Source: an uncultured bacterium
GTDB taxonomy: Bacteria; Actinomycetota; Geothermincolia; Geothermincolales; Geothermincolaceae
Assembly: GCA_963765625.1 (NCBI GenBank)
Contig: CAVXXD010000005.1
Span: forward strand, 191,113 to 255,112
Direction of reading: 5' to 3'
Length of the DNA: 64,000 bases
The notes under the pieces are model-generated. The model saw nothing but the letters and a program-made list of their open reading frames with translations. It had not been told where the DNA came from and did not search any database. The position numbers were made by a program, and so were the translations under genes. Each line of letters starts with the position of its first letter. Position 1 is the first letter of the stretch. Positions 1,443 to 44,273 of the stretch are shown one piece after another.

Positions 1443-2528
1443 CTAGGTATACTCCATCTCCGTGGGCAGTGAAGTAAGCAGGCGAGGCCCGTCCGGGTCC
1501 AGCCTGACCATGTCTTCCACCCTGACCCCGCCCACGCCCGGCAGGTATACGCCCGGCTCCAGCGTGAAGACCATCCCCTCCCGCAGCCTTTCCTTGCTGT
1601 TGATGCTGAGGTAAGGAGGCTCGTGCACTTCCAGGCCGACGCCGTGCCCCAGAGAATGGGATATGAAGGCGCCAAACCCGGCTTTTTCGATTGTGTCGCG
1701 CGCCAGGCAGTCCATGTCCGCGGCTCGCACACCGGGACGCAGGGCCTCAAGCACTCTTTCCCTGCTTTCGAGAACGGCAGCGTAGGCTTTCCGCAAGCGC
1801 CCGCGCGGCCGCCCCAGCCAGATGGTACGGGTCAGGTCCGCCTGGTAGCCGTTGTACCCGGCTCCCCAGTCAATCAGCAATACCGTGCCCTCCTTCAAAC
1901 GGCTGGAAGTGCTGCGTCCGTGCGGCAGGGCGCTGCGGGGCCCGGACACGGCGATGGTGGGAAAAGCGCGGTCCTCCGCCCCCAGCCTTCTCATGCAGGC
2001 TTCCATCTCCGCCGCCACGTCCCTCTCGCGCCAGGTAAGCAGGTCTTTCTTTTCCAGTAGAGACTTTAGAGCCGCTTCGCTGAGGCGGGCCGCCTTGCGC
2101 ATCAGGTCGACTTCGCCTGCTTCCTTCAACGCTCGGGGCCTGGATGCCCTGCCGGGCATGGCCACCAGCCGCGCCCCGCCCTTGAGCTCCTTTCGCAGGG
2201 CCGAAAGAAAAGCGCAGCTGAGGGCGGCGGGTTCAAAGCCGATACGTCCATACCCTTTATCGGCGCAGACCTTCGCGATGGTGCCGTAGAGGCCGGTTTC
2301 GTATACAATTATTTCCGCTTGGTCCGCTTCTTCCGGCGCTTGCAGACGATAACGCGGATCGGTGATCAGGCATGCGCCCCCCGCGTCCACCAGCGAAAAA
2401 CCGGAGGATCCCGAGAAGCCGGTATAATACCTTACGCCTGGAGCATCGGCAAGCAGGAACGCGTCCAGACGCCGCCCCTCCAGCTCTTCCAGCAGCCTGG
2501 CACACCTGGCATTATGATCTAGCTTCAT
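1443..2528 (-). CDS. pepP: Xaa-Pro aminopeptidase (M24 family peptidase)
   Basis: 361 aa; M24 metal-binding motifs (HGVGLEVHEPPYL, GMVFTLEPG); conserved pepQ-efp pairing. Confidence 0.85.
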   Translation of the reverse strand: MKLDHNARCARLLEELEGRRLDAFLLADAPGVRYYTGFSGSSGFSLVDAGGACLITDPRYRLQAPEEADQAEIIVYETGLYGTIAKVCADKGYGRIGFEPAALSCAFLSALRKELKGGARLVAMPGRASRPRALKEAGEVDLMRKAARLSEAALKSLLEKKDLLTWRERDVAAEMEACMRRLGAEDRAFPTIAVSGPRSALPHGRSTSSRLKEGTVLLIDWGAGYNGYQADLTRTIWLGRPRGRLRKAYAAVLESRERVLEALRPGVRAADMDCLARDTIEKAGFGAFISHSLGHGVGLEVHEPPYLSINSKERLREGMVFTLEPGVYLPGVGGVRVEDMVRLDPDGPRLLTSLPTEMEYT

Positions 2529-2602
2529 GCCCGTATATTACCATAGAAAGGAGCGCGCCTTCCGGGCGCGCCCCTTTTATGGCCGTCTTCGGACATCGTG
2601 GA

Positions 2603-4222
2603 TCACTGAATGACTTTCCACGATTTTACCTGGAAGGGTATGGGGAAACCGGCGACCGGCACGGAAGGCCGGCGATAGGTGATGCCGGTGCCCGTCCAGA
2701 GGGACAGGTCCGCGTCGCGCAACATGATCGAGCCCTTGGCGGTGATCTGTCCCAGGATATCCTTGAAGAACTGCAGGGGATAGTCTACCGCATAATCGCT
2801 GCCGTTGTACCCCGAGTAGATGAAGAGGGTATCCATGGGGGACAGGTTCCAGTCGATGCCGCTGCTGAACCTGACCTTGCCCTGGGCGATAACCTGATAC
2901 TCGCAATTCTCCTCCATCCACCAGCCGGAATTTATGGTGACGTCCCCCAGCGCCACGAACACCCCCTTGGTGTTGGCCTTCAGATCCGTACTGTCGATCA
3001 ACAGGTTGCCCTCGCTGAAACATATCCAGCCGTTGAAGAGGGCCTGGGTGGACTCGTTGATCTCTATGGGGTCAGGAGTGGCGGTCCCGCCGTTGGAACT
3101 ATTCCAGTACTGGGCACTGTCGTCGGAGCTGAAATAGTGCTTCTCGGAATACCCGTTATCCTCCGCCCAGACGTCCTGTATCTTGGCCTGGGCGCGGTAC
3201 CAGTCCCAGTCAGGCTCGGGCAGGACGACTTCGGGCACGATGCTGCTGCCCTGATATTCGCTTCTAGTGCCCAGGATGGTCAGGTAGCCGCCGAGCTTTA
3301 TCCCGAATATCGAGATGGGATTGTCGATATCGGCCGTATCCAGGTCACCTCCGGCGATGCAGTTGCCGTCAATGGTTATGTAGGAAGATGCCAGAAGCCA
3401 TGTCTCGGCGTCCAGGTCTATCTCCCCGCCGGCAAAGACACCCTCCCCGAGGGCCTCGAACTGGGCCGAGTCGAAGGAACTGCCCCCGGTCACCCTCACC
3501 GCCGAGCTGGCGGCTATGCCGGAAAACGCCCTCAGGTGGCAGTAATCCCTGGCGTAGACGTTACCGTTGATCTGCAACCCCACGCCGAAGCCCAGGATCA
3601 GTTTTTCATTGAGAAAATCCAGGTTCCTGCCGTAGACGTTGCCGTTGACCTTGAAGTCCGTGTAGCCCAACAAGCCCCCGGAATCGAGGTATATGGTTCC
3701 GGACTCGGAAAAGAGCACGTAATTCAGGGCATCGAAATACTTGTCGGTCCCTGCGAAAGCCACCTTCTCCTCCAGTTTGCGGGTGAAGGTCGTGCCGTCG
3801 TCATTGGTGTAAGTGCCCGTGGAAGTGATCGTCCAGTCCTTGGAGCCGTTGAGGGGATCGCTGTTTTCGATGGTGGCGATGAAGTAAGGGTTGGCGTCGA
3901 GGCGCGGGTCGTCCGGATCCTCGGGGATCGTCTTTCCGGAAACGGGCACCAGTTCCCTGGACAACTCGGCATGAGCCGCCGATATGCCGCTCTCGGCTGC
4001 GTCGAAAGCCTTGCCGGACGCCATGAGGCCCTGGGCGTTCATCAGGGAGTAGAGGGCCATGATCATTGCCGTAGCGCCCAGAACGGCCAGCATGGAGATG
4101 ATAAAGAGCACCATGACCATGGCAAACCCCTCTTCACTCCGCTCAACTGTCCCCGTCCGGCCTTCTCGAGCCGGCGTCCGCGCCTGCGTGATCCTCTTGT
4201 ATCTTCTCATGTAGCCTCTCAT
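2603..4222 (-). CDS. PilX-like minor pilin / pilus-associated protein (PilX_N-type N-terminal TM segment)
   Basis: 539 aa; basic leader then hydrophobic EGFAMVMVLFIISMLAVLGATAMIMA segment typical of the PilX N-terminal domain; last gene of the minor-pilin operon. Confidence 0.55.
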   Translation of the reverse strand: MRGYMRRYKRITQARTPAREGRTGTVERSEEGFAMVMVLFIISMLAVLGATAMIMALYSLMNAQGLMASGKAFDAAESGISAAHAELSRELVPVSGKTIPEDPDDPRLDANPYFIATIENSDPLNGSKDWTITSTGTYTNDDGTTFTRKLEEKVAFAGTDKYFDALNYVLFSESGTIYLDSGGLLGYTDFKVNGNVYGRNLDFLNEKLILGFGVGLQINGNVYARDYCHLRAFSGIAASSAVRVTGGSSFDSAQFEALGEGVFAGGEIDLDAETWLLASSYITIDGNCIAGGDLDTADIDNPISIFGIKLGGYLTILGTRSEYQGSSIVPEVVLPEPDWDWYRAQAKIQDVWAEDNGYSEKHYFSSDDSAQYWNSSNGGTATPDPIEINESTQALFNGWICFSEGNLLIDSTDLKANTKGVFVALGDVTINSGWWMEENCEYQVIAQGKVRFSSGIDWNLSPMDTLFIYSGYNGSDYAVDYPLQFFKDILGQITAKGSIMLRDADLSLWTGTGITYRRPSVPVAGFPIPFQVKSWKVIQ

Positions 4223-4237
4223 CTTCCATCACTCCCT

Positions 4238-4900
4238 TTATGGGTACACTGCCAGCTGGTTGCGGATGGACACCGATTCAGTTCCTGAGGTGGTCACGTA
4301 TTGGTCGGATTCATACATCCTGTGGCCTTCCGAGCCTGAGCCTACCGCGATCTGGTAGCCGCGCGTGATGGTCATGTTGATCTCCACGCGCTCGATAACG
4401 GTGGTATCGACTACGCCATCTTCTCCGGTTTCGTACGCGGTTATTATTTTGCCGTCCGCATCGTAGTAACTAAAGGCGAGGCTCTCTACGTCAGTGACGA
4501 TGGTTTCCGCGGCTTCCCCTTCCGCCTGGGAGACCTGCAGTTCGGTCCCGTTCAGCGTGAAAGTGATCAGGCGGGTCTGGGTCGCATCGGCATACGCGTA
4601 GAAGCTGACGCTGCTCCCGCCCGGCACGCACCCTCCCGGCACGAAGTAATGGGCCACTCTCATCTGCCAGGTCATCTTATCCATGGCCTGGCGCCATTCC
4701 TGATTGATCTCGGCATTGTACATGGTCGTCCTGGTCAGAGAGACCCCGGTCTGCGAGAAGTTGAAGGCGGCGTAGGTGAGCACGAACAGGAGCATTATCC
4801 CGACCAGCAGCTCGGCTATGGAGAAGGCATCCTCTCGCGCCAGCCGCTCCCGGCAACCTGCCTTGACCGCCTGGAACCTGTTCACTTTCGCGTCTTTCAT
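4238..4900 (-). CDS. PilW-like minor pilin (prepilin-type N-terminal domain)
   Basis: 220 aa; EDAFSIAELLVGIMLLFVL resembles the prepilin cleavage/methylation segment, with Glu at +5 but Ala instead of Gly at -1. Confidence 0.5.
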   Translation of the reverse strand: MKDAKVNRFQAVKAGCRERLAREDAFSIAELLVGIMLLFVLTYAAFNFSQTGVSLTRTTMYNAEINQEWRQAMDKMTWQMRVAHYFVPGGCVPGGSSVSFYAYADATQTRLITFTLNGTELQVSQAEGEAAETIVTDVESLAFSYYDADGKIITAYETGEDGVVDTTVIERVEINMTITRGYQIAVGSGSEGHRMYESDQYVTTSGTESVSIRNQLAVYP

Positions 4901-4913
4901 ATCCTCACTTCCC

Positions 4914-7724
4914 CTACCATGTCTGCCCGCTCGGGTTACCAGAGGTCAGACTCTTTATCGTCCACCGGTTGGTGTACGGCGTAGACTGACTGTCGATACT
5001 ATTCGTCAAGGTGATGTCGTAGTCGCCCGTGCCGGAGTTCACGTTCCAGTTCGGGCTGAAAGAACCGTGGCTGTTCCAGTTCGCCAGTGTGCTGTCGGGC
5101 ACCGTGTAGAGCAGCACACTGTGGTTGACGCGATCGACGATCGCCACATACTGCCCGGTCATGTCCACCCCGTTGCTGCCGTCAGCTTCTATGTTGATAC
5201 TGGTATTGGAGCCCGTAGTGGAGTCGAGAAAACCCTTGCCCTTGAGCATCATCTTGATGTCACCATAACGTTTGCCCCAGGCTTTGGCGGACGCCGTTTC
5301 GACAGTATAGTAGTAGTTGTTCGCGAAAAGCCAGTAGTAATACCTTATGGTCACCGCGCCGGAGCTGGCGGCAAGAAGTGTCGGTGCGCCATATTGCACC
5401 GTGAAGGTCGACCCCACGTACTCCCCTGGCTCGTAAGGGTCCACGACCCATAGTTTATACAGAGTCCCGCCAACCACACAGGGGACCTGGATGAGATTGA
5501 GTTCTCCCGCCACGGTTGTCGTCGTAATGGCCGCTGCCGCTTCCCCGTCACCTACCCCGATCTCGTAACGCGTCCCGGTGCCGTCGTTCTTCTGGTAGTA
5601 GACCTTGTCCGTAGGCAGGAACCCGGTGCCGGTCACCGCCAGCCCCAGGTCGTAGTAGTTATAGTACCAGCCGGAATTAGCACCGGTTGCAGTGTTCCTG
5701 ATAGTAGTGATCGTCGGCTTGTTGCGCACCAGGTAGGCGTATGTCGTCGTGCTGTCCATAACGGCATCCAGATAGGCCTGCTGGTGTGTCACGGTATTAT
5801 ACAGGTACAGCCAGCACTCGGAAGGCGATACCTGCGCGTTGAACCCGTTAAGGTTGAAGTTCGCCTCAATCAGATCGGAGCTCAGGTACTGGATGTCACC
5901 TGCCGCGACGTACTCCGGCAGCGTGCCTCCCCATTCGTCGATAGGCTCCCAGGTCTCAGGGTCGTATCCCACCGACGGCAAGGGCATGTCCACGATTCCC
6001 GCCGCCCCGAGGTAGACCTTTACCTCGTCCCAGTTATCCTGCACGTCCAGGCTCTTGCCCTCGATGGTCAGGTTGTACGTCTTGTTCTTGAAGCCCCAGT
6101 TGCGCCTGAACCCGCCAAAAGCAGTATAAACACTCGTGTCGTACATACGATAGACGCTCAGCTGCGGCTCCTCCACGTCGACATAGAACGTGGAGATACC
6201 CACCCTGTCCCCGAGTTGCCCGACCCTGTCGTAGTCCCGGCAGTTCCAGACCTCGACGTAGTACCGCTGGTAATTCTTGGTCGTGACGACGCCATCTTCA
6301 TCCACCACGGTCTTCTCGAAGGGGTAGTCCCAGCCTTCAGTCGAACGTCCCCTGAGGTTGAACTGGTCGGTGATGGTGTCGCTGTCCGCGCCGCCCGTGT
6401 AATTATTGCCGCTGACGATGCTGGTCGGGGTGGATTGGATGTCTTCCTTGCTCAGGTAGCGGTCCTGGATCACCCTGGTGCGGTCTACGGTACCGTCGGC
6501 ATTGCACCAGACCAGTTGCATCACCGCATAGCATCGCCGCAGGCGGACGGGGTACGTCGCGCTGCTGTTCCAGGCCAGTATGGGATTGCCCTTGATGGTA
6601 GCCGCGAAACTGCCTACACTTCCGGCGACATCCTGGAAATTACCCTCCGCGGTGACGGGGAAGATCTCCCCGTTGGTCTCGCTGCTCACGGCCTCATCTA
6701 TCACGGGTTCGGGGAACTCCACCACGAATCCCTGGTAGAGTATGGCATAAGCCGATTCCTTGTCGAGCCTCACATCCCATCCCCCCGGCTCGGCGTAGCT
6801 GCCGAAACTCGCCCAGGGCATGGTCTCGAGATTGTTGACGCTCGCAAGGTTGACGGACCCCCACAGAATGCCGTCCTGCACCTCGCTGGTATCCGTCAGG
6901 GTGATCGGGATGTCATCGTGACCCTGCATCGTCAAGCAGGCCGTGCTGCTGGCATCGAACCCGTATCCGGTTATCTTCAAGGGTATGCTGTTGACGTTAT
7001 GCGGCGCGGAGTTGGAAGTGGAGCCCTGCTTGCTCGTATCCCCGCCCTGGCTGATAACCTCGATCGCGGATACGCCCAGGTTGGCCTGGGCCTGGGTCCG
7101 CGTCATGACCGACGTGGTCGAATTGCTCTTCTCCGCTCCGTTGTCATCCATGTAGTAAGCCTTCACCTCGAACTTGATGAGGTTGATGGGCATGTTCGTA
7201 TCGTCACTCGGATCGTCGGTATTGGCGCTGGCGTAGGTGCTGCTCTTGCCTTTTGGCCCCCAGTATCCCCACATGGACGCCAGGGTCATGTCGTCATTGA
7301 GGAAGGCCATGTTGACGGTAATGCGGAATTGGGGATAGGGATCCTGATCGTAATCCTTGACCTCGACTTCGTACTGGTCGTCCCACGAGTTATCGAGGCC
7401 CCTGGACCCGGAGACCGCTTCCCAGTAGAAATCGTCCATATCCGTTTCCCCTACTTCTGAGTTGTAGGGCGTGTAGAACGACCTTGACCAGACGATTTCC
7501 GAGTAGTTGCGCAGGCACACCTCGGCCTTGTTCAGGTCCGCGGCCGTGGAAGATAACCTGATGGAAGTACCAAAGAGCTGCATCAGGGGCAGGGTGACCA
7601 TGGTCAGCACCAGCCCGGCTACGAGCACTTCAACGATGCTGAAGCCTCCCTGGTTGCGCCCAGGCGTCATCGTCTTTCTGAGCATCCTTTTCCAGCGCTT
7701 CATCTGTCTCACCCTTCCACTCAA
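4914..7724 (-). CDS. Giant modular type IV pilin-like protein (class III signal peptide + ~880-aa C-terminal module), putative pilus-tip adhesin
   Basis: 936 aa; basic leader ...GRNQG|FSIVEVLVAGLVL with Gly-1/Phe+1/Glu+5. ORF-track start 7724 is TTG; ATG at 7703 preceded by an AGGGTGAG SD is an alternative. Large Ser/Thr/Asn/Tyr/Trp-rich extracellular portion. Confidence 0.65.
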   Translation of the reverse strand: MSGRVRQMKRWKRMLRKTMTPGRNQGGFSIVEVLVAGLVLTMVTLPLMQLFGTSIRLSSTAADLNKAEVCLRNYSEIVWSRSFYTPYNSEVGETDMDDFYWEAVSGSRGLDNSWDDQYEVEVKDYDQDPYPQFRITVNMAFLNDDMTLASMWGYWGPKGKSSTYASANTDDPSDDTNMPINLIKFEVKAYYMDDNGAEKSNSTTSVMTRTQAQANLGVSAIEVISQGGDTSKQGSTSNSAPHNVNSIPLKITGYGFDASSTACLTMQGHDDIPITLTDTSEVQDGILWGSVNLASVNNLETMPWASFGSYAEPGGWDVRLDKESAYAILYQGFVVEFPEPVIDEAVSSETNGEIFPVTAEGNFQDVAGSVGSFAATIKGNPILAWNSSATYPVRLRRCYAVMQLVWCNADGTVDRTRVIQDRYLSKEDIQSTPTSIVSGNNYTGGADSDTITDQFNLRGRSTEGWDYPFEKTVVDEDGVVTTKNYQRYYVEVWNCRDYDRVGQLGDRVGISTFYVDVEEPQLSVYRMYDTSVYTAFGGFRRNWGFKNKTYNLTIEGKSLDVQDNWDEVKVYLGAAGIVDMPLPSVGYDPETWEPIDEWGGTLPEYVAAGDIQYLSSDLIEANFNLNGFNAQVSPSECWLYLYNTVTHQQAYLDAVMDSTTTYAYLVRNKPTITTIRNTATGANSGWYYNYYDLGLAVTGTGFLPTDKVYYQKNDGTGTRYEIGVGDGEAAAAITTTTVAGELNLIQVPCVVGGTLYKLWVVDPYEPGEYVGSTFTVQYGAPTLLAASSGAVTIRYYYWLFANNYYYTVETASAKAWGKRYGDIKMMLKGKGFLDSTTGSNTSINIEADGSNGVDMTGQYVAIVDRVNHSVLLYTVPDSTLANWNSHGSFSPNWNVNSGTGDYDITLTNSIDSQSTPYTNRWTIKSLTSGNPSGQTW

Positions 7725-8269
7725 TATGTGACATTACCCAGTTCGTTGATGCTTACCGTCTTGGATTTACCACCACAACTTATCGTAACCGACGCGGGTG
7801 TGATGTTCATGAGGACGCCCTGAGGCTGGATGACGATGGTAGCTGCGCTTTCGATGCTCAAATCAGACTGGCCATCCAGTAATTTGTTGATGTATTTGCC
7901 GCCCTCTTCGTCATAGGAAACACCGGCGGGCGGTTGTTCCGAGGTAGTGATAGTCGTGCCGTAGGGATCGACATACGAAGTGCTCACCTCGTAGGTGTTA
8001 TTACTATCGTTGAAGGTCAATGTAACCGTGCGATTCTGGTTGACGGCCAGGTTCACCGCATTGTCCATGGCTGCCTTGACCTGTTCGGCCGCGGCGTTGA
8101 GCTGGCTGGTTTCCCGCATGTTCATGTAGTTGAATACCGCGAGGCCGCTGATGATGGAAAGAATGAGGATGTAGGCTATCAGTTCGACCAGGGTGAATCC
8201 GCTTTCTTCCCTGGACCTGGCAGACAGTTTCTCGATCACGTTTTCCTCCCCCGGTTTATATCCAACCAT
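7721..8269 (-). CDS. FimT/GspH-like minor pilin (prepilin-type N-terminal cleavage/methylation domain)
   Basis: 182 aa; ...REESG|FTLVELIAYILILSII canonical G/FTLxE prepilin motif; first gene of the operon; stop overlaps next gene start. Confidence 0.6.
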   Translation of the reverse strand: MVGYKPGEENVIEKLSARSREESGFTLVELIAYILILSIISGLAVFNYMNMRETSQLNAAAEQVKAAMDNAVNLAVNQNRTVTLTFNDSNNTYEVSTSYVDPYGTTITTSEQPPAGVSYDEEGGKYINKLLDGQSDLSIESAATIVIQPQGVLMNITPASVTISCGGKSKTVSINELGNVTY

Positions 8270-8520
8270 TACCTATATTTTACCATTTCGCCTGATAGGC
8301 CTTTTGTGGGTAGACTTGCCTGAAAAGCCGCTCCGTTTCCGCTCTAACCAGTACTTTTATCGTCACGATCACTCTGTTTCCTTTAGCTCAATCAATATAT
8401 AGCAATGCAAAAGCTGTGCAAAGTATGTTACGTTTATGTTACGCTCAAATTATAATACCTGTTCAATGGCGGTTTTATCAATATTCTTACACTATCCCTA
8501 TTATATTAGTATATTATTTC
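8270..8520 (-). promoter_or_regulatory. AT-rich intergenic island, presumed promoter region of minor-pilin operon
   Basis: ~250 bp at ~30% GC inside a ~65% GC genome, directly upstream (minus strand) of the FimT-like gene; no convincing -35/-10 pair resolved by eye. Confidence 0.3.
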
Positions 8521-8964
8521 TTACAGCTTTTTTCCCTGTAATATCGCCTCCAGTGCAAGCAGGTAGGAAAGGTGCCCGAAACCGCTGATCACGCCGTATG
8601 CCGCCGGGGATATCACCGACCTGCTCCGCCACTCCTCCCGGGAGAAGATGTTACTGAGGTGCACCTCCACCACCGGAACGGAGATAGCGCGCACCGCATC
8701 ATGCAGGGCATAGCTGTAATGGGTCAGGGCTCCGGGGTTCAGTATCACTCCCGCATAACCTTCCCGGGCTTCCTGCAGCCAGTCTACCAGGGTTCCTTCA
8801 TGATTACTCTGGCGGATGTCGATCTCGCATCCCAGTTCCTCTGCCCGGCGGAAAAGCCCTTCCTCCATCTCCACCCAGGAAACCAGGCCGTAAAGTTCCG
8901 GCTCCCGCTCTCCCAGCAGGTTGAGATTCGGGCCGTTCAACAGCATCACCTTCAATGAGCCCAC
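8521..8964 (-). CDS. aroQ: 3-dehydroquinate dehydratase, type II
   Basis: 147 aa; type II DHQase motifs (LLNGPNLNLLG, HLSNI). Confidence 0.9.
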   Translation of the reverse strand: MGSLKVMLLNGPNLNLLGEREPELYGLVSWVEMEEGLFRRAEELGCEIDIRQSNHEGTLVDWLQEAREGYAGVILNPGALTHYSYALHDAVRAISVPVVEVHLSNIFSREEWRSRSVISPAAYGVISGFGHLSYLLALEAILQGKKL

Positions 8965-11842: not shown

Positions 11843-12559
11843 TCAGATCCTTCTCAGCTGGCCTTTCTGCAGTTCGTAGGTCTCGTCTCCGCACATCAGC
11901 ACGAGAACGGTGCTGGACTTGAACTCTACGATCTTATAATTGTTGCCGAAGCTCACGCCCGCTTTTATGTTCTCGTAGCTCGTGTCCCCGACCTTTATCT
12001 TGGCGTATTTGATGCCGCGGCTCTCGAAGATGTCCTGAACCAGTATGACCTGCCCGCTGCTGACCTCCGCCGTCACCGGTACGGTCGAAGAAGGAGTGGT
12101 GGTTGGAGCTGTTGATGAACCTGCCGTTCCCTCGTCCAGATCACGGTTCAGTATCAAGCCTAGTTTTGAGTCCAGTGTCCCTTCGTTATCGACCAGCGCC
12201 CCCACATCACCCATCAGCGGCATGAAGGGGTCGTTCAACACCCACACGTCCGAATAAGGTATCTCTCCCGGATAGGACGACTCGACCAGCTGGATGTTGA
12301 AGTGCTGTTCGATCGTCCGGGATACTATGGCATCCGACTCCAGCGCTCCGGCATTCTGGCCGGGCGCTAAAGACTGCGCGAGCGACCTGTCGATCGTCGT
12401 GTTGTCATTGTCGCCGAAGCTGGTTGAAAGGAACAGGAGTGACGCTATCAGAGCAACGGCAAGACTGCCGAACAGCCTTATCCTTCTGTTGGCCTCGACC
12501 TCCATGGCTTCCTGCTTCTTTCTATTCGCGCTGTTTTCGGTTCTTTTCATCATATCCAC
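11843..12559 (-). CDS. Membrane-anchored hypothetical protein, possible PilP-like pilus assembly component
   Basis: 238 aa; one N-terminal TM helix, Ser/Thr/Pro linker, C-terminal beta-rich ~80 aa; directly follows pilM-pilN-pilO in what looks like the same operon. Confidence 0.35.
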   Translation of the reverse strand: MDMMKRTENSANRKKQEAMEVEANRRIRLFGSLAVALIASLLFLSTSFGDNDNTTIDRSLAQSLAPGQNAGALESDAIVSRTIEQHFNIQLVESSYPGEIPYSDVWVLNDPFMPLMGDVGALVDNEGTLDSKLGLILNRDLDEGTAGSSTAPTTTPSSTVPVTAEVSSGQVILVQDIFESRGIKYAKIKVGDTSYENIKAGVSFGNNYKIVEFKSSTVLVLMCGDETYELQKGQLRRI

Positions 12560-12574
12560 CTCGGCTATACGATT

Positions 12575-13138
12575 CTACTTGGTCAAGAGCAGCTCGACGC
12601 CGTTGGGCGTTGTAAAGAATATCTTGAAAGTAACGGTTATTTGCAGGTAGGGCAAGGTATCTTCGCCGGCCGAGACGGCCAGGATCACTGGCTTTATGGA
12701 GCGAGGCAGTTTTTCAACCTGGTTGAAAAACTCAACCATGTTGAAATAACGGCCGTTTAAAACCGTTGCGATCGAGGATACGTAGAACTTTCCCTGCTGT
12801 ACAGGCATTTCCGGCGTAAGGCTGAAGAAATCCAGCCCTGCTTTTTCCGCGGCGTAGTCCAGCTGCTGGACGACGTCGGCCAGGTCGACGTTCTCGGGTA
12901 TCTTGCCGTCCAGGGCGCTGATCTGGCGCGTGAACTGCTCAGGGTCCTTGTTGTATGCTTCCAGCTGGGCTTGACGGCCCTGTTCTTTGCTGTATTCGGA
13001 TTTTACGCTGCTGATCTGTCCATCAAGGTCGCTGACTTTGTTCTTTTCAGGCAATACGATAAACGCCACTCCGATCGCCAGAAGTATTATGGCTACGACT
13101 ACCACGATAATCAGGTAAAAGCGCGGATTGATTTTCAT
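12575..13138 (-). CDS. pilO: Type IV pilus assembly protein PilO
   Basis: 187 aa; N-terminal TM + coiled coil + PilO-like C-terminal domain; position after pilN. Confidence 0.7.
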   Translation of the reverse strand: MKINPRFYLIIVVVVAIILLAIGVAFIVLPEKNKVSDLDGQISSVKSEYSKEQGRQAQLEAYNKDPEQFTRQISALDGKIPENVDLADVVQQLDYAAEKAGLDFFSLTPEMPVQQGKFYVSSIATVLNGRYFNMVEFFNQVEKLPRSIKPVILAVSAGEDTLPYLQITVTFKIFFTTPNGVELLLTK

Positions 13139-13974
13139 TTCCCACTACCTCCGGTGGTGGTTCCCGTTTCTTCGGCATTCTTAGACTTGAGGTCCCATGG
13201 CGCCTTTTCAGTATTCCAGTAACCATCGATCTCGAAGGCGATGGCCCAGTCCTGATAAGATTCATCCACAACGGTCTGGGTGCCGTTTTCGTCCACTTCT
13301 TCGTGCTGCACCGTTATGGTCACCGGCTCCTGGGTGGAACTCACTATCCACAGGTTGCTCCATTCCTCCATGTTTTGCAGCCTGACATAGAATTCAGCTA
13401 CCTTTGGCTGGCCACGGAAATAGTAGTAGTAGGGATAGGCGTCAAGAAAGCCGTGAGCCTTGAAGTCGCTGGCCCGGGGCAGCCATGTTTGAATGCAGAG
13501 CCAGGCCGGAGCAGCGTATCCAGTCATGGTTATCGAGGGTGACGAACTAGTCTCGGCTCCTCCCTCGAGTGGCGTCGCATCGATATTCAGGCTGGTCAGC
13601 CAGATGGCCGGTGCGCGCGAATTGCTCGCGGTAGTCAAACCTTCAGGCACATAAAGTGCCAGGTCGTTCAGCATGCTCGCCCAGCCGACCCTGCCGACGT
13701 TACAGGCTGCGTAAAGATCCTGGATGCTCTGGAGTTCGGCAGCCTGCTCTTCATAGACCTGGAGCGGCTCCTCGACCTTTTTCTGAAGTTCCTGCAACTC
13801 GGCTTCCTGGTCCTTGAGATCTGCCTCCTTACTGGTAACCTGGTTATGGAAGAAGAGCCAGCCCACTCCCACCAGTACCACTACCGCCAGCAGCGATATA
13901 ACGATCCAGGGAATGAGGTTTACCCTTTCGGCCTTTCCCTTTATCTCGGGAGGAAGCAGGTTTATGCGCGTCAT
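13135..13974 (-). CDS. pilN: Type IV pilus assembly protein PilN (with C-terminal extension)
   Basis: 279 aa; conserved N-terminal INLLPPE motif, TM helix, coiled coil. Confidence 0.75.
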   Translation of the reverse strand: MTRINLLPPEIKGKAERVNLIPWIVISLLAVVVLVGVGWLFFHNQVTSKEADLKDQEAELQELQKKVEEPLQVYEEQAAELQSIQDLYAACNVGRVGWASMLNDLALYVPEGLTTASNSRAPAIWLTSLNIDATPLEGGAETSSSPSITMTGYAAPAWLCIQTWLPRASDFKAHGFLDAYPYYYYFRGQPKVAEFYVRLQNMEEWSNLWIVSSTQEPVTITVQHEEVDENGTQTVVDESYQDWAIAFEIDGYWNTEKAPWDLKSKNAEETGTTTGGSGK

Positions 13975-15044
13975 TATTCCATCACCTCTCTGAGGGCAAG
14001 GCCGATACAGACGGCAACTGAAGGTTCGATGTCGGCCAGCTCTTCAGCCGCGAAGGGAAGCTTGCCCATCTGGAGATTCTGGAAAGGTTTCCCCATCTCC
14101 ACCGGAATCCGCAGCCCGCGGTTCATCTCCTGAGAGAGGTTGAGGGTTTTTGACCCGCTTCCGGAGAGAATGACCTTCGAGAGGTTTCTCTCCTGGGTCT
14201 GCGCGACATAGTAATCGATGGATCGACGGACTTCACCGACGAAATTGAAGATCTCCTGCTGGAGTATCTTGTTCGCCTCTTCGTGGACCTGTTTGCCGGT
14301 CCTGATCTCTTCCGCTTCTCCTGCATCCATGTTCATGCGGTCCATGATGATGGAGGTAAAGTCGTTCCCTCCCCGCAGCAGGAAGCGCGCGAACCTGGGT
14401 ATCCGGTCCTTGAGAATGACTATATTGGTGATACCGGCTCCGATATTGACGATGCAGACGCTCTCTTCCTCCCCCGCCTCTTCCATCAGCTGCACCTCTC
14501 TCTTGATGAGGGAGCGGGGCAGGGCGAACGCCTTGAGGTCGATCGCCACCGGCACCAGGCCGGCGCTCTGCAGGACCCCGACGAAGCTCTGGATCATGTC
14601 CCGGTGGGCTGCCACCAGAAGCACCGTGAGCATCCGTTCTTCTTCGGCCGTCATGAACTCCTCGATGACTTCGAAATCAAGGACGGCATCCTCGGTGGGG
14701 ATGGGTATGAATTCCTGCACCTGGAAGCGGAGAGCCGAATCCAGCTCTTCCCTCTCCATGTACGGCAGTTCGATGGGGCGGACTATCACCTTCTGGTTGG
14801 CGATTCCCAGGATGACCTTTTTCCCTTTCAAGCCGGACCGGGTCCAGAGCTCCTTGAGCAGGTTGGAAAGGGACTCCGGGTCCTCGATCTCGCCGTCACG
14901 GATCACGCCTTCAGGGAGTTGGATGAACCCCAGGTTCGATAGAATGGCATCTCCCCGGTCGATCTCGACCTCCGAGACCTTGACCGAGCTATTGCTGATG
15001 TCCAGGCCAATTGCAGTCGTCTTCTTCTTTGGACTCATCATCAT
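13974..15044 (-). CDS. pilM: Type IV pilus assembly ATPase-like protein PilM (actin/FtsA fold)
   Basis: 356 aa; IGLDISNSSVKV N-terminus and actin-like ATPase fold motifs. Confidence 0.85.
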   Translation of the reverse strand: MMMSPKKKTTAIGLDISNSSVKVSEVEIDRGDAILSNLGFIQLPEGVIRDGEIEDPESLSNLLKELWTRSGLKGKKVILGIANQKVIVRPIELPYMEREELDSALRFQVQEFIPIPTEDAVLDFEVIEEFMTAEEERMLTVLLVAAHRDMIQSFVGVLQSAGLVPVAIDLKAFALPRSLIKREVQLMEEAGEEESVCIVNIGAGITNIVILKDRIPRFARFLLRGGNDFTSIIMDRMNMDAGEAEEIRTGKQVHEEANKILQQEIFNFVGEVRRSIDYYVAQTQERNLSKVILSGSGSKTLNLSQEMNRGLRIPVEMGKPFQNLQMGKLPFAAEELADIEPSVAVCIGLALREVME

Positions 15045-15062: not shown

Positions 15063-15242
15063 TCACGAACCCTTGGTGAGGTATTTATTGACATCGCTCT
15101 CTTTGATCCGGTAATTCTTGCCTACACGAATGGCCGGGATCTGGCCTCCCTTTACCAGGCGGTAGACCGTCATATTGGATACCCTTAGTATATCGGCCAC
15201 TTCGTTCACCGTCAGCAGTTTGTTGCTAATCTTTTCTCTCAT
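15063..15242 (-). CDS. Small helix-turn-helix DNA-binding protein, excisionase/MerR-like HTH_17 family (not in ORF track)
   Basis: 59 aa translated by hand: MREKISNKLLTVNEVADILRVSNMTVYRLVKGGQIPAIRVGKNYRIKESDVNKYLTKGS; GGAG SD 7 nt upstream; stop 18 nt before pilM. Confidence 0.7.
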   Translation of the reverse strand: MREKISNKLLTVNEVADILRVSNMTVYRLVKGGQIPAIRVGKNYRIKESDVNKYLTKGS

Positions 15243-15490: not shown

Positions 15491-16270
15491 CTACCGCATC
15501 ATTGAGCGATATAGCTCGATTATCCACCCCCCCACAAATATCGATATCCAACTTCCTGCGATCAGATACGGTCCAAATGGTATCTTCGACTTCCACTCCT
15601 TTTTCCCTGTAAGAATTGGTGGGATTGACGCAATGCTTCCCAGAAGGAAACCGAGAAAGAGCGCGGGGATGACGTCCCAGCCCAGCACAACGCCTGAAAA
15701 TGCCATCAACTTGGCGTCACCCATGCCCATCCCTTTCGGATACAGCAGAGAGATCAGGCCCAGCGGCCCCCCGCCGATGAGCAGGCCGGCCCCCTGTTCC
15801 ACCAGGACCTGGCTGTCCCAACGGACCAGGGCGATCACTCCCACGTAGACCACGGCGATCAGAAGGGAAGGAAGGATGATGGCATTGGGGATTATCAGCT
15901 CCTTCAGGTCGATCATGCCGACCATCAGGGTCACCGTGACGAAAAAGAGATAGAGCGGCAGGAAGGCGTCCCATCCGAACCCGAAATGGGCGAAGACCGC
16001 CACGTACATGGCCGCGTTGGTGAACTCGACCAGGAGGTATACGGGGGAGATGCGGCAACCGCAACGGCGGCAGCGTCCGCGCAGTAACAGCCAGCTCAGC
16101 AGGGGTATATTGTCGTACCATTCGATGGGCGTGTCGCAACCCGGGCAGAACGACCTCGGCTTGACCACGGACAGGCCGCGAGGAACCCGGTAGATCACGA
16201 CATTGGCGAAACTGCCGATGGCCGAGCCCAGCAGGAACAGAACCACTGAAAAAAAGATAGCAGGTAACAT
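15491..16270 (-). CDS. pilD: Prepilin peptidase PilD (A24 family) with tetracysteine zinc motif
   Basis: CPGC...CRRCGC motif and 8 TM core. The ORF-track start 16348 (TTG) lies inside the pilA1 terminator hairpin, so the start is set at ATG 16270 (MLPAIFF...). TATAAT sits 9 nt upstream of that ATG, suggesting a leaderless mRNA. Confidence 0.85.
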   Translation of the reverse strand: MLPAIFFSVVLFLLGSAIGSFANVVIYRVPRGLSVVKPRSFCPGCDTPIEWYDNIPLLSWLLLRGRCRRCGCRISPVYLLVEFTNAAMYVAVFAHFGFGWDAFLPLYLFFVTVTLMVGMIDLKELIIPNAIILPSLLIAVVYVGVIALVRWDSQVLVEQGAGLLIGGGPLGLISLLYPKGMGMGDAKLMAFSGVVLGWDVIPALFLGFLLGSIASIPPILTGKKEWKSKIPFGPYLIAGSWISIFVGGWIIELYRSMMR

Positions 16271-16310
16271 GTTGGCCCAATTATAAGGAGGGCAGGTGAC
16301 AAAATCCCTG

Positions 16311-16338
16311 GCATCGAAAAGGGCCCCTGGGTGGGGCC
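16311..16338 (-). terminator. Rho-independent terminator downstream of pilA copy 1
   Basis: Minus-strand GGGCCCC-ACCCA-GGGGCCC hairpin followed by TTTTCG. Confidence 0.5.
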
Positions 16339-16374
16339 CTTTCTTCAATAACCGTTCTTCACACTCATCAGCTC

Positions 16375-16698
16375 TTAATCGCCATAAGTGTGTCCCAGAT
16401 CACAGACCGCGTACGGCGGCGTGCCGGTTACGACTTCGTAGGTGCCCCCAGCGGGGCACTCCGGCCAGTCCTTGAGGAGCTCGGGCACGTAGTCGGCGGA
16501 ATCCAGGGAGTAATCGTCAGCCCCCGCCCGATACTGTATGACGCAGCCGTCGATGGTCCTAAGGTTGTCCTTGCAGGCGCCTTCCTCCGCATTGCTCTGC
16601 GCGCTGAAGAACACCGGCACGGCAATGGCTACCAGTATACCGATGATAAGAATAACGACCATCAACTCGATGAGGGTGAACCCTTCCTGCTTTTTCAT
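16375..16698 (-). CDS. pilA: Type IV major pilin PilA, copy 1
   Basis: 107 aa; MKKQEG|FTLIELMVVILIIGILVAIAVP canonical prepilin signal; Cys pairs in C-terminal globular domain; strong GGAGGTG SD. Confidence 0.88.
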   Translation of the reverse strand: MKKQEGFTLIELMVVILIIGILVAIAVPVFFSAQSNAEEGACKDNLRTIDGCVIQYRAGADDYSLDSADYVPELLKDWPECPAGGTYEVVTGTPPYAVCDLGHTYGD

Positions 16699-16790: not shown

Positions 16791-17114
16791 TTAATCGCCA
16801 TAAGTGTGTCCCAGATCACAGACCGCGTACGGCGGAGTGCCGGTAACGATCTCATAGGTGCCGCCAGCGGGGCACTCCGGCCAGTCCTTGAGGAGCTCGG
16901 GCACGTAGTCACCGGAATCCAGTGAGTAATCGTCAGCCCCGGCACGGTACTGCATTACGCAGCCGTCGATGGTCCTCAGGTTGTCCTTGCAGGCGCCTTC
17001 CTCCGCATTGCTCTGCGCGCTGAAGAACACCGGCACGGCAATGGCTACCAGGATACCGATGATAAGAATAACGACCATCAACTCGATGAGGGTGAACCCT
17101 TCCTGCTTTTTCAT
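16791..17114 (-). CDS. pilA: Type IV major pilin PilA, copy 2
   Basis: 107 aa from ATG 17114 with the same GGAGGTG SD; the ORF-track upstream extension is ignored; 3 aa substitutions relative to copy 1 (V/M, A/G, V/I). Confidence 0.88.
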   Translation of the reverse strand: MKKQEGFTLIELMVVILIIGILVAIAVPVFFSAQSNAEEGACKDNLRTIDGCVMQYRAGADDYSLDSGDYVPELLKDWPECPAGGTYEIVTGTPPYAVCDLGHTYGD

Positions 17115-17233
17115 ATCTCTTTCACCTCCTCCCGTCACAATCTCTTTCCTGTTCACTTTCTTTAATAACAATATCGGGCTTGCCAGGAAATACCTTTAGG
17201 GTATTTTTCGTCTTCTGGTGAGACTAGACCCAT

Positions 17234-18460
17234 CTAGCTGCCGCCGGCGAACTGGCCGATGAGGGAGAAAATGGGCATGTAAAGGGAGATGACGATGGTT
17301 CCGACAACCCCTCCCAGGAGGACCATCATCAGGGGCTCCATCAGGGAGGTCAGAGACTCCACCGCTGCTTCGATCTCGGAGTCATAGAAGTCGGCGACCT
17401 TGTTGAGCATGGTATCCAACGCCCCGGTCTCTTCGCCGATGGCCAGCATCTGGGTGACCATGGGTGGGAACAGCGGGTTAGTTGCCAGCGGCTGTGCGAT
17501 GGACTCTCCCTCCTTGACGCCCATGCGAACGCTTTCGACGGCATCCGCGACCAGCCTGTTCCCGACGGTCTCGGAGGTGATCTCGAGGGCTTGCAGGATG
17601 GGTACGCCGGAAGAGACCAGGGTTCCCAGGGTACGGGAGAACCGGGACATGGCCATCTTGTGGAAGAGCGTGCCGAACACCGGCATTTTCAGCTTGAAAG
17701 CGTCCACTTTCCTTCTGCCGCTATCGGTTTTCTTCCATCTCCTGAAGAAATAGATGCTGAAGCCTACCACGAAGTAGAAGACCAGGCCGGCTAGGCTCTT
17801 GATGAAGTTGCTCAGGTTGATGATGAACTTGGTCAGTGCCGGCAGCGTCGCCCCCATCTGCTCGAACATGTTCACGAAGGTGGGGACCACCACTACCAGC
17901 ATGACTACCAGCAGATGCATGGAGATACCCAGCATGGCGATGGGGTAGGTCATGGCTGATTTTATTTTACGCCTGATGTTGTCTTCGTTCTCCAGGGTCA
18001 GGGCTACACGCAGCAGGACGTCGTCGAGCACGCCGCCGATCTCGCCGGCCTTGACCATGCTGGTATAAAGCTGTTTGAAGGTGTCGGGGTGCTTGCTCAT
18101 GGCCTCGGACAGGGAACGGCCCATCTCCACCTCGTGCTGGACATCCTGCACGACGCTGGCCAGTACCGGGCTGTCTGTCTGCTCGGCCAGAATGGCCAGG
18201 CATTTTACCAGCGGCAGGCCGGCATTGATCATGGTCGCGAACTGGCGGGTGAATACCGTTACGTCCTTGCCCTTGACCTTGGGCTTGAAGATGTGGAGTT
18301 CCTTCTTGCCCATGGCTGCCTTTTCCTTGTCTACCCCGATGACGAAGTAGCCCATCTGGCGCAGCCGCTGCGATACGTTGGCTTCGCTGTCCGCTTCCAG
18401 GGTGCCGGTTATGATCTTTCCCTGGCGGTCTCTCACCCTATAGGAATAAGTATCTGCCAT
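17234..18460 (-). CDS. pilC: Type IV pilus inner-membrane platform protein PilC (GspF family)
   Basis: 408 aa; two GspF-like repeats and TM segments. Confidence 0.9.
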   Translation of the reverse strand: MADTYSYRVRDRQGKIITGTLEADSEANVSQRLRQMGYFVIGVDKEKAAMGKKELHIFKPKVKGKDVTVFTRQFATMINAGLPLVKCLAILAEQTDSPVLASVVQDVQHEVEMGRSLSEAMSKHPDTFKQLYTSMVKAGEIGGVLDDVLLRVALTLENEDNIRRKIKSAMTYPIAMLGISMHLLVVMLVVVVPTFVNMFEQMGATLPALTKFIINLSNFIKSLAGLVFYFVVGFSIYFFRRWKKTDSGRRKVDAFKLKMPVFGTLFHKMAMSRFSRTLGTLVSSGVPILQALEITSETVGNRLVADAVESVRMGVKEGESIAQPLATNPLFPPMVTQMLAIGEETGALDTMLNKVADFYDSEIEAAVESLTSLMEPLMMVLLGGVVGTIVISLYMPIFSLIGQFAGGS

Positions 18461-18614: not shown

Positions 18615-19358
18615 CTAGTCACCTGCTTGATCTTCCTCCCCGGAAACAGGTTCAGCAATGGTTTTCCGCAATTCACTGATCCGGTCCTCCAGAAGATTGA
18701 TCTTGGTGACAACGAACTTCCTGGCGGCCTGGTCCAGCCCTTCACGCATCAAGGCCAAACGGTAGTAGTCCAGTTGCTCCCGCAGGGCAGCAATGGCTCC
18801 GGCCGGGTCTCCCAGGGCGTTGCTGGTCACGGCGATCCCGGCGGTCAGGTACATCATGTCCACGAATTCCAGCCGCTTGCCGATGGCTTCCCGGTAGGCC
18901 TCCCGGGCTTGTTGGTATTTTTCCTGCCTCATGTAGAGGTCGGCCAGGCTGGCGTAAAGATCGCCGTTGTCCGGGTTGTTGGCTATCCCCTCCAGGGTGA
19001 AATCTATGGCCTCCTGCTCGCTGCCGGCGTAGAAGATGGTCGCTCCGCCCACGTAATACGCGTCGATATAGTGGGGGTCGAGGTAGCTTATCAGCTTATA
19101 ATACGGGATCAGCTCGGATTCAGAGCTGAGGCTTTCATAATAGCCGTGATGGAGGCTTTCCGTCCTGATCCAGAGGACGTAGGCCAGGAACTGCCTGACA
19201 CCACCGAGAAAGTCCAGGTAGTTGACGCTGGCGGAAGCCCCCTCGCCGGCCCGGCTTTCCTCGCCGCCCAGGTCCGACCGCCCCAAAGCCACCTGTGCGA
19301 AAGAGCCCGCCAGGATAAGAGCGGCCAGGATGACGCAGAGAACAGCCCTCTTCCTCAA
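18615..19358 (-). CDS. Secreted TPR-repeat protein (PilG-like accessory partner of the ABC transporter?)
   Basis: 247 aa; signal peptide (MRKRAVLCVILAALILAGSFAQVALG), TPR-like Tyr/Ala-rich helical repeats; start overlaps the permease stop. Confidence 0.55.
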   Translation of the reverse strand: MRKRAVLCVILAALILAGSFAQVALGRSDLGGEESRAGEGASASVNYLDFLGGVRQFLAYVLWIRTESLHHGYYESLSSESELIPYYKLISYLDPHYIDAYYVGGATIFYAGSEQEAIDFTLEGIANNPDNGDLYASLADLYMRQEKYQQAREAYREAIGKRLEFVDMMYLTAGIAVTSNALGDPAGAIAALREQLDYYRLALMREGLDQAARKFVVTKINLLEDRISELRKTIAEPVSGEEDQAGD

Positions 19359-20140
19359 ATCTCCTTCCTCCGGAATATCTCTCCACCGATGAGGATGAAG
19401 ACGGTGGAGAAGACGGCTGCCAGGATGGCCAGCATGAGCATGTCCAGGGCGGTGACGGGGTAGGTCCTCTCCCCGTGCGCCACCGTCTCGTTTATGTTGA
19501 AGAAGCTCAGGTTGGGCAGGATGTAATAGAAGAGCCCGGCTATCCCCCGCAGCAGGAAGTTGTGGGCACCGTCGGCCATTATGTCGTGCAGGAACTCACC
19601 TTTCAGGTGGCAGACCACGTAGAAGGCGGTGGTCCCGAAGAAGGAGACCACCGGGCTGGCGAAGGTGGTCAGCATGAGGGTGAAGGCCGCCAGTATGGCC
19701 GACTCCATGTATATGGCCAGCACTGCTTTGTACAGCCCGGGGTTGAAGACGTTGAACTTGAGATAGATAAAAGCCACCGCCACCAGCCAGGAGAAGGCCA
19801 GGGTGACCGCCATCACCAGCATCACCCCGGTATAACGGCCAGTGTAATACGTCCAGCGGGAGATCGGCTTGGAGAGGATGTAGTAGACGGCCCGCCGCTC
19901 GACTTCCACGGAGATGGCCATTGCCGCCAGGACCACGGTCAGCACCAGGGACATCAGGGAGATGAGGCCGAGGAAGCCGTCGCGCATGAGGTCTATCTGC
20001 ACGCCCACCCGCGCGCTGGGCAGGACCGGCACCATCAGGACCAGTATCAGGGTAATGGCCACCAGCGCATAATAGAGCTTGCGGTGTACGGCATCTTCGA
20101 TGACGCTGCGCACGATGGCGGTGAAAGCCCGGAGCCTCAT
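19355..20140 (-). CDS. ABC-2 type transporter permease (PilI-like)
   Basis: 262 aa from ATG 20140 (MRLRAFTAIV...), ATGA overlap with the ATPase stop; 6 TM; the ORF-track 364-aa N-terminal extension is rejected. Confidence 0.7.
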   Translation of the reverse strand: MRLRAFTAIVRSVIEDAVHRKLYYALVAITLILVLMVPVLPSARVGVQIDLMRDGFLGLISLMSLVLTVVLAAMAISVEVERRAVYYILSKPISRWTYYTGRYTGVMLVMAVTLAFSWLVAVAFIYLKFNVFNPGLYKAVLAIYMESAILAAFTLMLTTFASPVVSFFGTTAFYVVCHLKGEFLHDIMADGAHNFLLRGIAGLFYYILPNLSFFNINETVAHGERTYPVTALDMLMLAILAAVFSTVFILIGGEIFRRKEI

Positions 20141-25418: not shown

Positions 25419-25430
25419 TTACCCTACTCC

Positions 25431-29828: not shown

Positions 29829-29868
29829 ACTGCATCATCTTCCGGTAAGGGTTGGTATCCACATTTCT

Positions 29869-30264: not shown

Positions 30265-30293
30265 ACAGCTACCTCCTGCCTATAACGCCTTGA

Positions 30294-32930: not shown

Positions 32931-32972
32931 CCTCTCTCCTTCCCTGTTCCGTATGGTCTAAAGGCCCGCGCT

Positions 32973-40875: not shown

Positions 40876-41219
40876 TTCTTTTCTTCTCTCATCATTACCG
40901 GGGGGTGTTCGTGTCTTATTTCATTACACCGCCAGGCGACGACAAAACCCTTTTCTCGCGGCTTTGTCAACGGCTATCAAGCCTGCATGTGGAGTGATAG
41001 TATGATGGAGAGAAGTTTGAAAAAGGCTCTGCCTTGTACGTTATTCCCTGTGATTATCTTTGAGCCAACACCTTGAACAAGCGGGACCGGAATCCGCGAG
41101 TGGACGTAATGCCCCCGCCCGGGTGGGGGACCACGGAAGCGAGTGGCAGGTCCCCACCTGCTTTTAAAGCAGGTTCAAAGATAACGGAGGAGACGGCAAG
41201 GCGGAGTTTTGCTTTGGGG

Positions 41220-44204: not shown

Positions 44205-44273
44205 AGCCTCCCCCTTCGGCTTCGGCAGAAACGGCGCCATATGTCCTGATTCTAACACCAGGACCATCGTTAT

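Follow-up and report, generated by a model that had tools for sequence, protein, structure and literature searches.

What is encoded by the four genes that lie between aroQ and pepP on contig CAVXXD010000005.1 of an uncultured actinobacterium is the question raised by the locus described here, which was analysed within a 64-kb stretch of that contig (the window). The genes, called P1 to P4 in the order of their transcription, are quite likely to form the core minor-pilin operon, that is the set of priming and tip proteins, of a type IVa pilus (T4aP) encoded in the same window. To our knowledge, hardly any work has been done on the type IVa pili of Actinomycetota. The segment between 2603 and 8269 consists of exactly four consecutive and tightly packed minus-strand open reading frames (ORFs) in the ORF listing, and that strand carries every gene of the window's first 30 kb (Table 1).

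The four predicted products begin with class III (prepilin) signals. The leader of P1, MIEKLSARSREESG, is followed by the cleavage site, marked here by an arrow, and FTLVE (...REESG↓FTLVE), the signal of P2 reads ...GRNQGG↓FSIVE and that of P3 ...LAREDA↓FSIAE; these three carry Glu at +5, with Gly at -1 in P1 and P2 and Ala in P3, while P4 (...ERSEEG↓FAMVMVL) has Gly at -1 and Met at +5, and thus no Glu5. Phe occupies +1 in all of them, and in each a strongly hydrophobic stretch follows (mean Kyte-Doolittle 2.15-2.45 for positions +1 to +21). The motifs are kept in orthologues from five further metagenomic loci whose N-termini were read, a set in which the P2 gene call of locus L005 is truncated. 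At position -1 of P3 Gly is found in five of the five orthologues (G↓F[ST]LVE), so the Ala of the window's P3 is a local variant. Glu5 is absent from P4 of the window and from all five of the syntenic orthologues read. The tip subunit that is assembled first (the GspK/PilX class) typically lacks Glu5, and P4 has the features of a GspK/PilX-class subunit lacking this residue.

The rarity of the motif was assessed on 533 stop-to-stop frames of at least 60 residues in the window, among which [GAS][hydrophobic]xxxE together with a hydrophobic 21-mer matched six times: five matches are genuine sites at the N-termini of P1, P2, P3 and the two major pilins, and one lies inside an antisense frame. Pfam N_methyl or NCBIfam IV_pilin (TIGR02532) was matched by P1, by 10 of 26 members of the P2 family and by five of six members of the P3 family, and 90 of 90 P2 relatives that share only its pilin module begin with the prepilin-type motif G↓F-xxx-E, which varies occasionally. 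The proposal of the initial annotation that four consecutive genes have prepilin N-termini is confirmed as far as sequence goes: signals occur in four of four proteins, they are recognisable as prepilin by their class III motifs and by the N_methyl/IV_pilin matches, and the motif is rare in the window.

The P1 and P2 ORFs overlap, and gaps of 13 and 15 bp separate P2 from P3 and P3 from P4. For P1, the ribosome-binding site (RBS) and public gene calls favour GTG 8239 (172 aa), with GGGGGAGG ahead of the GTG, and for P2 the RBS and independent gene calls favour ATG 7703 (929 aa), with AAGGGTGAG ahead of the ATG. The 539-aa form of P4 is supported by an RBS (AGGGAG, 9 nt ahead of ATG 4222) and by conserved upstream residues. 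The NCBI/ENA gene call (505 aa) begins with Met35 and so leaves out the G↓F cleavage site; as P4 relatives conserve the RxEEG-F/I-A/F-M stretch upstream of that start, this call is probably wrong.

The AT-rich aroQ-P1 spacer contains the region's best sigma-70-like hexamer pairs in a scan, TTGATA-18-TATTAT (8481->8452, 10/12) and TTTGCA-17-TATATT (8422->8394), and probably provides the operon with its own promoter; an Rfam scan of this leader found no family and no riboswitch. Past P4, the GC-rich hairpin of the P4-pepP spacer is followed on the minus strand by a T-rich stretch, TCCTTTCTAT, and is a possible terminator of the operon. Two long plus-strand ORFs, 2372-4288 and 5784-7460, are presumed to be frames antisense to P4 and P2, and a coding role for them was rejected.

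Assignment of the four proteins to minor-pilin classes is firmest for P1, which matches Pfam GspH (PF12019) at 1e-6 and 29.6 bits, above the curated cut-off of 21 and over the full profile (1-108), and N_methyl at 2.5e-5; its sub-threshold NCBIfam matches are GspH, ComGD and Verru_Chthon cassette D. Residues 25-109 of P2 match TIGR02523 PilV at 1.9e-5 and 25.2 bits, below the cut-off of 52.2. This family is matched by 12 of the 26 P2-family members (best 1.4e-7) and XpsI/GspI by two, all below the curated cut-offs, and some members have weak HpsB matches. For P3 weak matches occur in relatives only (HpsC 2e-6, Verru_Chthon cassette C 2e-4, GspJ 9e-4), and its position and size are the main, weak evidence that would place it in the PilW/GspJ class. 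P4 itself has no Pfam match, and its relatives show weak matches to Bactofilin, FapA (a beta-solenoid) and PilX_N. Profile searches against PDB sequences returned nothing for P2 or P4 and only the generic N-terminal pilin helix for P1 and P3; a RecA match of P3 in this search was discarded as an artefact arising from six weak repeats within a fusion construct.

The large size of P2 was examined with a profile made from four full-length homologues, retrieved by word-index search, that was run against 1.84 billion representative proteins and gave 635 proteins at E <=1e-3, 29 of them at <=1e-30. Among the best 150 of the 635, 26 are full-length (670-900 aa), 90 have no more than the pilin module (profile 1-190) in common with P2 and continue with other C-termini to a total of 120-1270 aa, and 36 are large repeat proteins in which only profile 225-345 or 505-690 is matched, up to 17 times each. 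The P2-like repeats of these other proteins coincide with Pfam IPT/TIG matches there and correspond to P2 residues ~238-345 and 572-789, Pfam TIG giving no match to P2 itself. The first and last immunoglobulin (Ig)-like regions of P2 (A and B2) are similar to each other (hhalign E 6.9e-5). As judged from these alignments, P2 is a pilin module followed by ~730 aa that include at least three predicted IPT/TIG Ig-like domains, with ~400 residues beyond the assigned modules.

Because a pilin module is joined to IPT/TIG-like repeats, P2 is a modular pilin in the sense of Raynaud et al. 2021, a class whose members act as tip adhesins (PMC8179133), and an adhesin role would be its presumed function. 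One distant member of the family carries an NHL/Vgb-lyase-type beta-propeller in place of the usual C-terminus, reminiscent of the PilY1 propeller though unrelated to it, so the C-terminal module is exchangeable. The modular pilins of Streptococcus sanguinis, PilB-vWA and PilC-lectin (PMC8179133, PMC6916266), differ from P2, which would be a multi-domain IPT/TIG array, and they belong to a set of three minor pilins, whereas the set found here is of the four-member GspH-I-J-K type.

For P4, word-index searches gave seven and then eight relatives, and an AlphaFold2 model was built on a 7-sequence alignment (predicted local distance difference test, pLDDT, 68.9; predicted TM-score 0.65). The model consists of a long helix (31-87), four strands (97-156), a beta-rich region (168-516) and a last strand (530-538) that is conserved with the motif PIPFQVKSWK, an order of secondary structure that fits the ComZ type. 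Searched against the PDB with Foldseek, the model has as its sole significant match ComZ of Thermus thermophilus (6qvi, E 1.6e-5, probability 1.0), with tapirins next. At the level of this model, P4 is shown as a GspK-like pilin domain with a ~350-aa beta-solenoid of ComZ/tapirin type.

ComZ, a tip pilin, has a GspK-like fold that accommodates an inserted solenoid resembling ice-binding proteins; it binds the PilV-like PilA2 and DNA, is required for transformation though piliation does not depend on it, and is not predicted by PilFind as a peptidase substrate (PMC6561018). The pilA1-pilA2-pilA3-comZ cluster of T. thermophilus (ComZ, PDB 6QVI; PMC6561018) shows an identity of only 10-14%, belongs to a diderm with a secretin and encodes a small PilA2, in contrast to P2 with its ~730-aa extension. 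Tapirins of Caldicellulosiruptor (PDB 4WA0, 6N2B; bioRxiv 10.1101/359786), whose fold type binds cellulose, differ from P4 in having neither a class III signal nor a pilin domain. The initial annotation had credited the tip module to the 936-aa protein alone; P4 with its solenoid is a bulky tip candidate as well.

From the family and fold assignments it follows that the four genes would stand in the order GspH-I-J-K/FimU-PilV-PilW-PilX. The resemblance to fimU-pilV-pilW-pilX that had been noticed at the outset holds, with P1 above the GspH cut-off, sub-threshold PilV/GspI matches in the P2 family and weak GspJ/HpsC matches in the P3 family. The classes would be the same four as in FimU-PilV-PilW-PilX of Pseudomonas aeruginosa, PilH-I-J-K of Neisseria and GspH-I-J-K of the type II secretion system, but in the window neither PilY1 nor a PilE-like sixth gene follows and no secretin was detected, the similarity to FimU-PilVWX/GspHIJK is confined to N-terminal modules and stays below curated cut-offs except for P1, and, compared with PilV and PilX, P2 is 4-5 times and P4 ~2-3 times larger. 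Another four-gene prepilin-type set that the locus resembles is the Verru_Chthon cassette A-D of NCBIfam (TIGR02596, TIGR02599 and relatives), matched by P1 (protein D, 5e-9) and the P3 family (protein C, 2e-4); these scores fall well short of the curated cut-offs (for protein D, 36 bits against 70; for protein C the cut-off is 256.5 bits) and the cassette belongs to other phyla. Similar too, as judged by their described features, are the cyanobacterial FimT-PilV-PilW-PilX sets: four families in one locus, a PilX whose solenoid resembles ice-binding proteins and no PilY1 (bioRxiv 10.64898/2026.02.12.705559). Cyanobacterial PilX and PilV subfamilies co-occur strictly, as P2 and P4 always do here (in seven of seven loci), and the PilX solenoids are proposed to substitute for the PilY1 plug (bioRxiv 10.64898/2026.02.12.705559). 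The cyanobacterial sets differ in phylum and in cell envelope.

The assignment of the four proteins to a T4aP is further carried by the machine itself, since pilB, pilT, pilC, two major pilin genes, pilD and pilMNO form a complete T4aP set that is co-oriented with the operon in the same window, 3.6-16 kb upstream. In the order of transcription the region comprises two Roadblock/LC7 genes, a gene for a 1465-aa DUF4388 protein, a Ras-like GTPase gene, aroE, pilB, pilT, genes for an ABC ATPase, an ABC-2 permease and a TPR protein, pilC, two major pilin genes, pilD, a 59-aa HTH_17 gene, pilM, pilN, pilO, a 238-aa gene, aroC, aroK, aroB and aroQ. The mature major pilins have ~101 aa and four Cys. 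The 238-aa gene, together with pilM, pilN and pilO, is kept beside aroC in the loci that reach that far (L001, L005, L007, L008 and L009), L002 has a partial match to it, and pilMNO with this gene are regarded as the machine's alignment subcomplex. No secretin or PilY1 Pfam family was matched among the 47 window ORFs scanned, nor did any of these match the C-terminal PilY1/Neisseria_PilC beta-propeller, in agreement with the initial annotation, which had reported neither homolog. Absence of a secretin is expected for a monoderm actinobacterium. As a separate observation, a MglA/MglB- or conservon-like module, 24885-30668 (-), lies directly upstream of aroE-pilB and may regulate the pilus.

A mechanism can be outlined on these grounds. 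The operon would have its own promoter in the AT-rich spacer between aroQ and P1, from which the closely coupled genes would be transcribed together, and the four prepilins would be inserted in the membrane and cleaved after Gly or Ala(-1) by the co-encoded PilD, as their motifs suggest. By analogy with GspH-I-J-K, FimU-PilV-PilW-PilX and ComZ-PilA2, a four-protein complex would form on the PilC/PilMNO platform, with P4 at the apex as the first-assembled subunit, P2 and P3 beside it and P1 linking the complex to the filament. The complex may then prime the polymerisation, driven by PilB, of the two major pilins (101 residues each when mature) and stay at the tip, and PilT would retract the filament. 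The exposed surface of such a tip would be formed by the P4 beta-solenoid and the ~730-residue extension of P2 with its Ig-like IPT/TIG domains, and these modules might supply capping and ligand binding (a surface polymer, a cell or DNA), as PilY1 does in Proteobacteria. Since no outer-membrane secretin was found, bulky tip subunits presumably need no passage through one.

Several points weigh against the assignment to a T4aP tip. P3 of the window has Ala rather than Gly at -1, and its class is supported only by its position and by matches of its relatives, with E-values of 1e-3 to 1e-6. Only some 40% of the P2 extension is assigned to modules. The AlphaFold2 model of P2, built from four homologues, has a pLDDT of 38.9 and is unusable; its Foldseek search gave no match at <=1e-3, the top non-significant matches being mostly multi-Ig chains, and neither was used as evidence. 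The absence of secretin and PilY1 holds for this 64-kb window only. Cleavage, pilus incorporation and tip location of P1-P4 are all inferred.

Among other explanations, it may be considered that the four proteins form a short pseudopilus or competence-type fibre for DNA uptake instead of tipping a long pilus for adhesion or motility, with P4 as a DNA receptor like ComZ in Thermus. The sole significant structural match of P4 is indeed ComZ, which binds DNA and serves transformation rather than piliation (PMC6561018), and distinct core minor-pilin sets in cyanobacteria specialise filaments, being split into competence or motility (bioRxiv 10.64898/2026.02.12.705559). This reading is considered unlikely, and a core operon of the co-encoded type IVa pilus is preferred to it.

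Less probable still is that P2 and/or P4 are membrane-anchored surface proteins rather than filament subunits. A pilin-like N-terminal helix that acts as an anchor only has been proposed for some PilX_N or pseudopilin-like proteins, both proteins are very large, and P4 has no Glu5, a 32-residue leader and an NCBI call (505 aa) that starts past the cleavage site; even ComZ is not a PilFind-predicted substrate (PMC6561018). However, Glu5 is normally absent from the first-assembled GspK/PilX-class subunit, the pre-cleavage stretch of P4 is conserved in relatives and a good RBS stands ahead of the long form, the canonical G↓FxxxE is kept across the P2 family, and in every locus the P2 and P4 genes are flanked by bona fide minor pilins.

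Whether the block was inserted between aroQ and pepP or retained there was left undecided by the initial annotation. The flanks were correctly identified. The operon is not isolated, given the T4aP machinery upstream on the same strand, and retention is favoured over insertion. The P1-P2-P3-P4 order is common to seven independent metagenomic loci, in which P4 is 29-51% identical to that of the window, and the complete order pilM-N-O-x-aroC-K-B-Q-P1-P2-P3-P4-pepP-efp-asp23-nusB repeats in L001, L005, L007, L008 and L009. In the most distant loci, L002 and L006, the four genes are accompanied by a fifth pilin-like gene and by an extracytoplasmic function (ECF) sigma/anti-sigma pair beside pepP; in L002 the block also lies downstream of aroQ, and the L006 sequence ends before the aro genes. 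G+C content at third codon positions (GC3) is 0.77-0.80 in P2-P4 and their codon-usage divergence falls within the range of neighbouring genes, while P1 has a GC of 0.52, forming a dip together with the spacer upstream. Neither the scan of flanking genes nor that with Rfam revealed an integrase, tRNA or other mobility family, repeats not having been searched for.

Linkage of pil and aro genes is known elsewhere. In E. coli K-12 (NC_000913.3, 3515000-3525000) hofM-N-O-P-Q, the homologues of pilMNOPQ, lie directly upstream of aroK-aroB on the same strand, mirroring pilMNO-x-aroC-aroK-aroB of the window, which suggests that the linkage is very old, and T4P operons of Acinetobacter include aroK and aroB (PMC5542475). 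Given the order in seven loci, the native codon usage and this linkage elsewhere, the block is read from its synteny and composition as belonging stably to an aro-pil supercluster and as having been retained there by vertical descent in this lineage. That it is a recently acquired island, as its GC dip and its interruption of the aroQ-pepQ-efp-nusB order of the Mycobacterium and Streptomyces backbone could suggest, is most improbable and ruled against by composition and synteny, namely the same position and order in loci so divergent in P4, the neighbour-like GC3 and codon usage of P2-P4, the absence of mobility families from the genes scanned and the interleaving of the other pil genes with aro here and in E. 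coli and Acinetobacter (PMC5542475).

In light of the old pil-aro linkage, the aroQ-pepQ junction of Mycobacterium and Streptomyces may be explained as a loss. Corynebacteriales may keep a prepilin-peptidase-like gene between aroE and aroC. Searches of the literature found neither a description of interleaved aro and pil genes in Gram-positive bacteria nor one of a remnant of PilD in Mycobacterium. A metagenome scan for the N-terminal GF[ST]xxE pattern, based on a 9-sequence P2 alignment, detected distant pilins beside pilB/C/D/M that are unlinked to aro genes. The two closest relatives in genome collections are metagenome-assembled genomes, and proteins of the lineage, including elongation factor P (EF-P), are singletons at 90% identity.

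The most distant loci have features of their own (L002 8590-9246 and 5820-8404; L006 2626-3216 and 2-2474): the fifth pilin-like gene stands ahead of P1 with the signals HG↓FSFNV and SG↓FSVIE, and a divergent ECF sigma factor gene with a DUF5667 anti-sigma-like gene adjoins the block, pepP being on the opposite strand.

Core minor-pilin sets, ComZ-type solenoid PilX, modular pilins, secretin-free T4aP of monoderms and pil-aro linkage are all known already; new are the host lineage, an uncultured clade of Actinomycetota, the combination of two oversized tip subunits and a sizeable PilV-based family of modular pilins in metagenomes. The locus would thus offer a complete and compact parts list for an actinobacterial T4aP, with machine, two major pilins and four-protein tip set, and it would extend to a monoderm phylum the theme, seen with ComZ and cyanobacteria, of a solenoid PilX instead of PilY1. 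It also suggests that the PilV position can bear a very large modular extension, and the embedding of pil genes among aroE, aroCKBQ and pepP-efp-nusB parallels pilMNOPQ-aroK-aroB of Proteobacteria and points to an old linkage. Current models are not overturned; the locus is a comparative data point and no surprise.

A more far-reaching proposal, which is put forward only tentatively, is that a T4aP tip of Actinomycetota combines two giant core minor pilins: a PilV-class protein with a ~730-residue Ig-like/beta stalk, founding an undescribed PilV-based modular-pilin family (hundreds in metagenomes, with interchangeable C-termini that include a beta-propeller), and a ComZ/tapirin-like solenoid PilX. 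Such a tip would be independent of PilY1, unconstrained by a secretin and retained in the aro-efp cluster since before the actinobacterial classes diverged.

Table 1. Features of the minor-pilin operon and its surroundings; positions are those of the window, except for the P2 modules (residues of the protein).
Feature	Position	Strand	Description
P1	7721-8269	(-)	182-aa ORF, likely 172 aa; predicted GspH/FimU/FimT-class minor pilin
P2	4914-7724	(-)	936-aa ORF, likely 929 aa; predicted modular PilV/GspI-class pilin
P2 modules	pilin ~28-206; TIG-like Ig domains ~238-345, ~572-789; rest beta-rich	(-)	from profile and repeat mapping
P3	4238-4900	(-)	220 aa; predicted minor pilin at the PilW/GspJ position
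P4	2603-4222	(-)	539 aa; predicted GspK/PilX-class tip pilin without Glu5, ComZ/tapirin-like beta-solenoid
aroQ	8521-8964	(-)	flank upstream of P1
aroQ-P1 spacer	8270-8520	(-)	251 bp, AT-rich, GC ~0.50
GC-rich hairpin	2553-2571	(-)	in the 74-bp P4-pepP spacer; stem GCGCGCC/GGCGCGC
pepP	1443-2528	(-)	Xaa-Pro peptidase; flank downstream of P4, followed by efp, asp23 and nusB
238-aa gene	11843-12559	(-)	between pilO and aroC, at the pilP/pilQ position; no Pfam or NCBIfam match
pilO	12575-13138	(-)	Pfam PilO 3e-14
pilN	13135-13974	(-)	alignment subcomplex
pilM	13974-15044	(-)	Pfam PilM_2 2e-57
HTH_17 gene	15063-15242	(-)	59 aa, excisionase/MerR-like; between pilD and pilM, also in L001
pilD	15491-16348	(-)	prepilin peptidase; Pfam A24_N_bact 2e-33, Peptidase_A24 4.5e-11
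Two tandem major pilin genes	16375-16698, 16791-17171	(-)	nearly identical; 107-aa precursors MKKQEG↓FTLIELM
pilC	17234-18460	(-)	Pfam T2SSF 8e-68
ABC ATPase, ABC-2 permease, TPR protein	18615-21066	(-)	inserted between pilT and pilC
pilT	21084-22208	(-)	Pfam T2SSE 7.5e-46
pilB	22252-23910	(-)	Pfam T2SSE 9e-140 and MshEN
Ras-like small GTPase	24885-25418	(-)	Pfam
DUF4388/PATAN-domain protein	25431-29828	(-)	1465 aa; Pfam
Roadblock/LC7 (MglB-like) genes	30294-30668, 29869-30264	(-)	upstream of aroE-pilB
Rest of window			pdxS, yebC, ruvCAB (ruvC and ruvA from position and size only), queA, tgt, yajC, secDF, relA, dtd, hisS, aspS, rarA, alaS, mltG

The gene set in the rest of the window matches the conserved actinobacterial backbone of Mycobacterium and Streptomyces. 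This housekeeping backbone is broken between mltG and the Roadblock genes by NiFe-hydrogenase large-/small-subunit-like genes, 31605-33890 (-). A 6S RNA (Rfam RF00013, 81 bits) was located at 41023-41211 (+), on the strand opposite to almost all genes, and is adjoined by a 1015-aa ORF, 41220-44267 (-), whose only match is a weak one to a DUF5122 beta-propeller.

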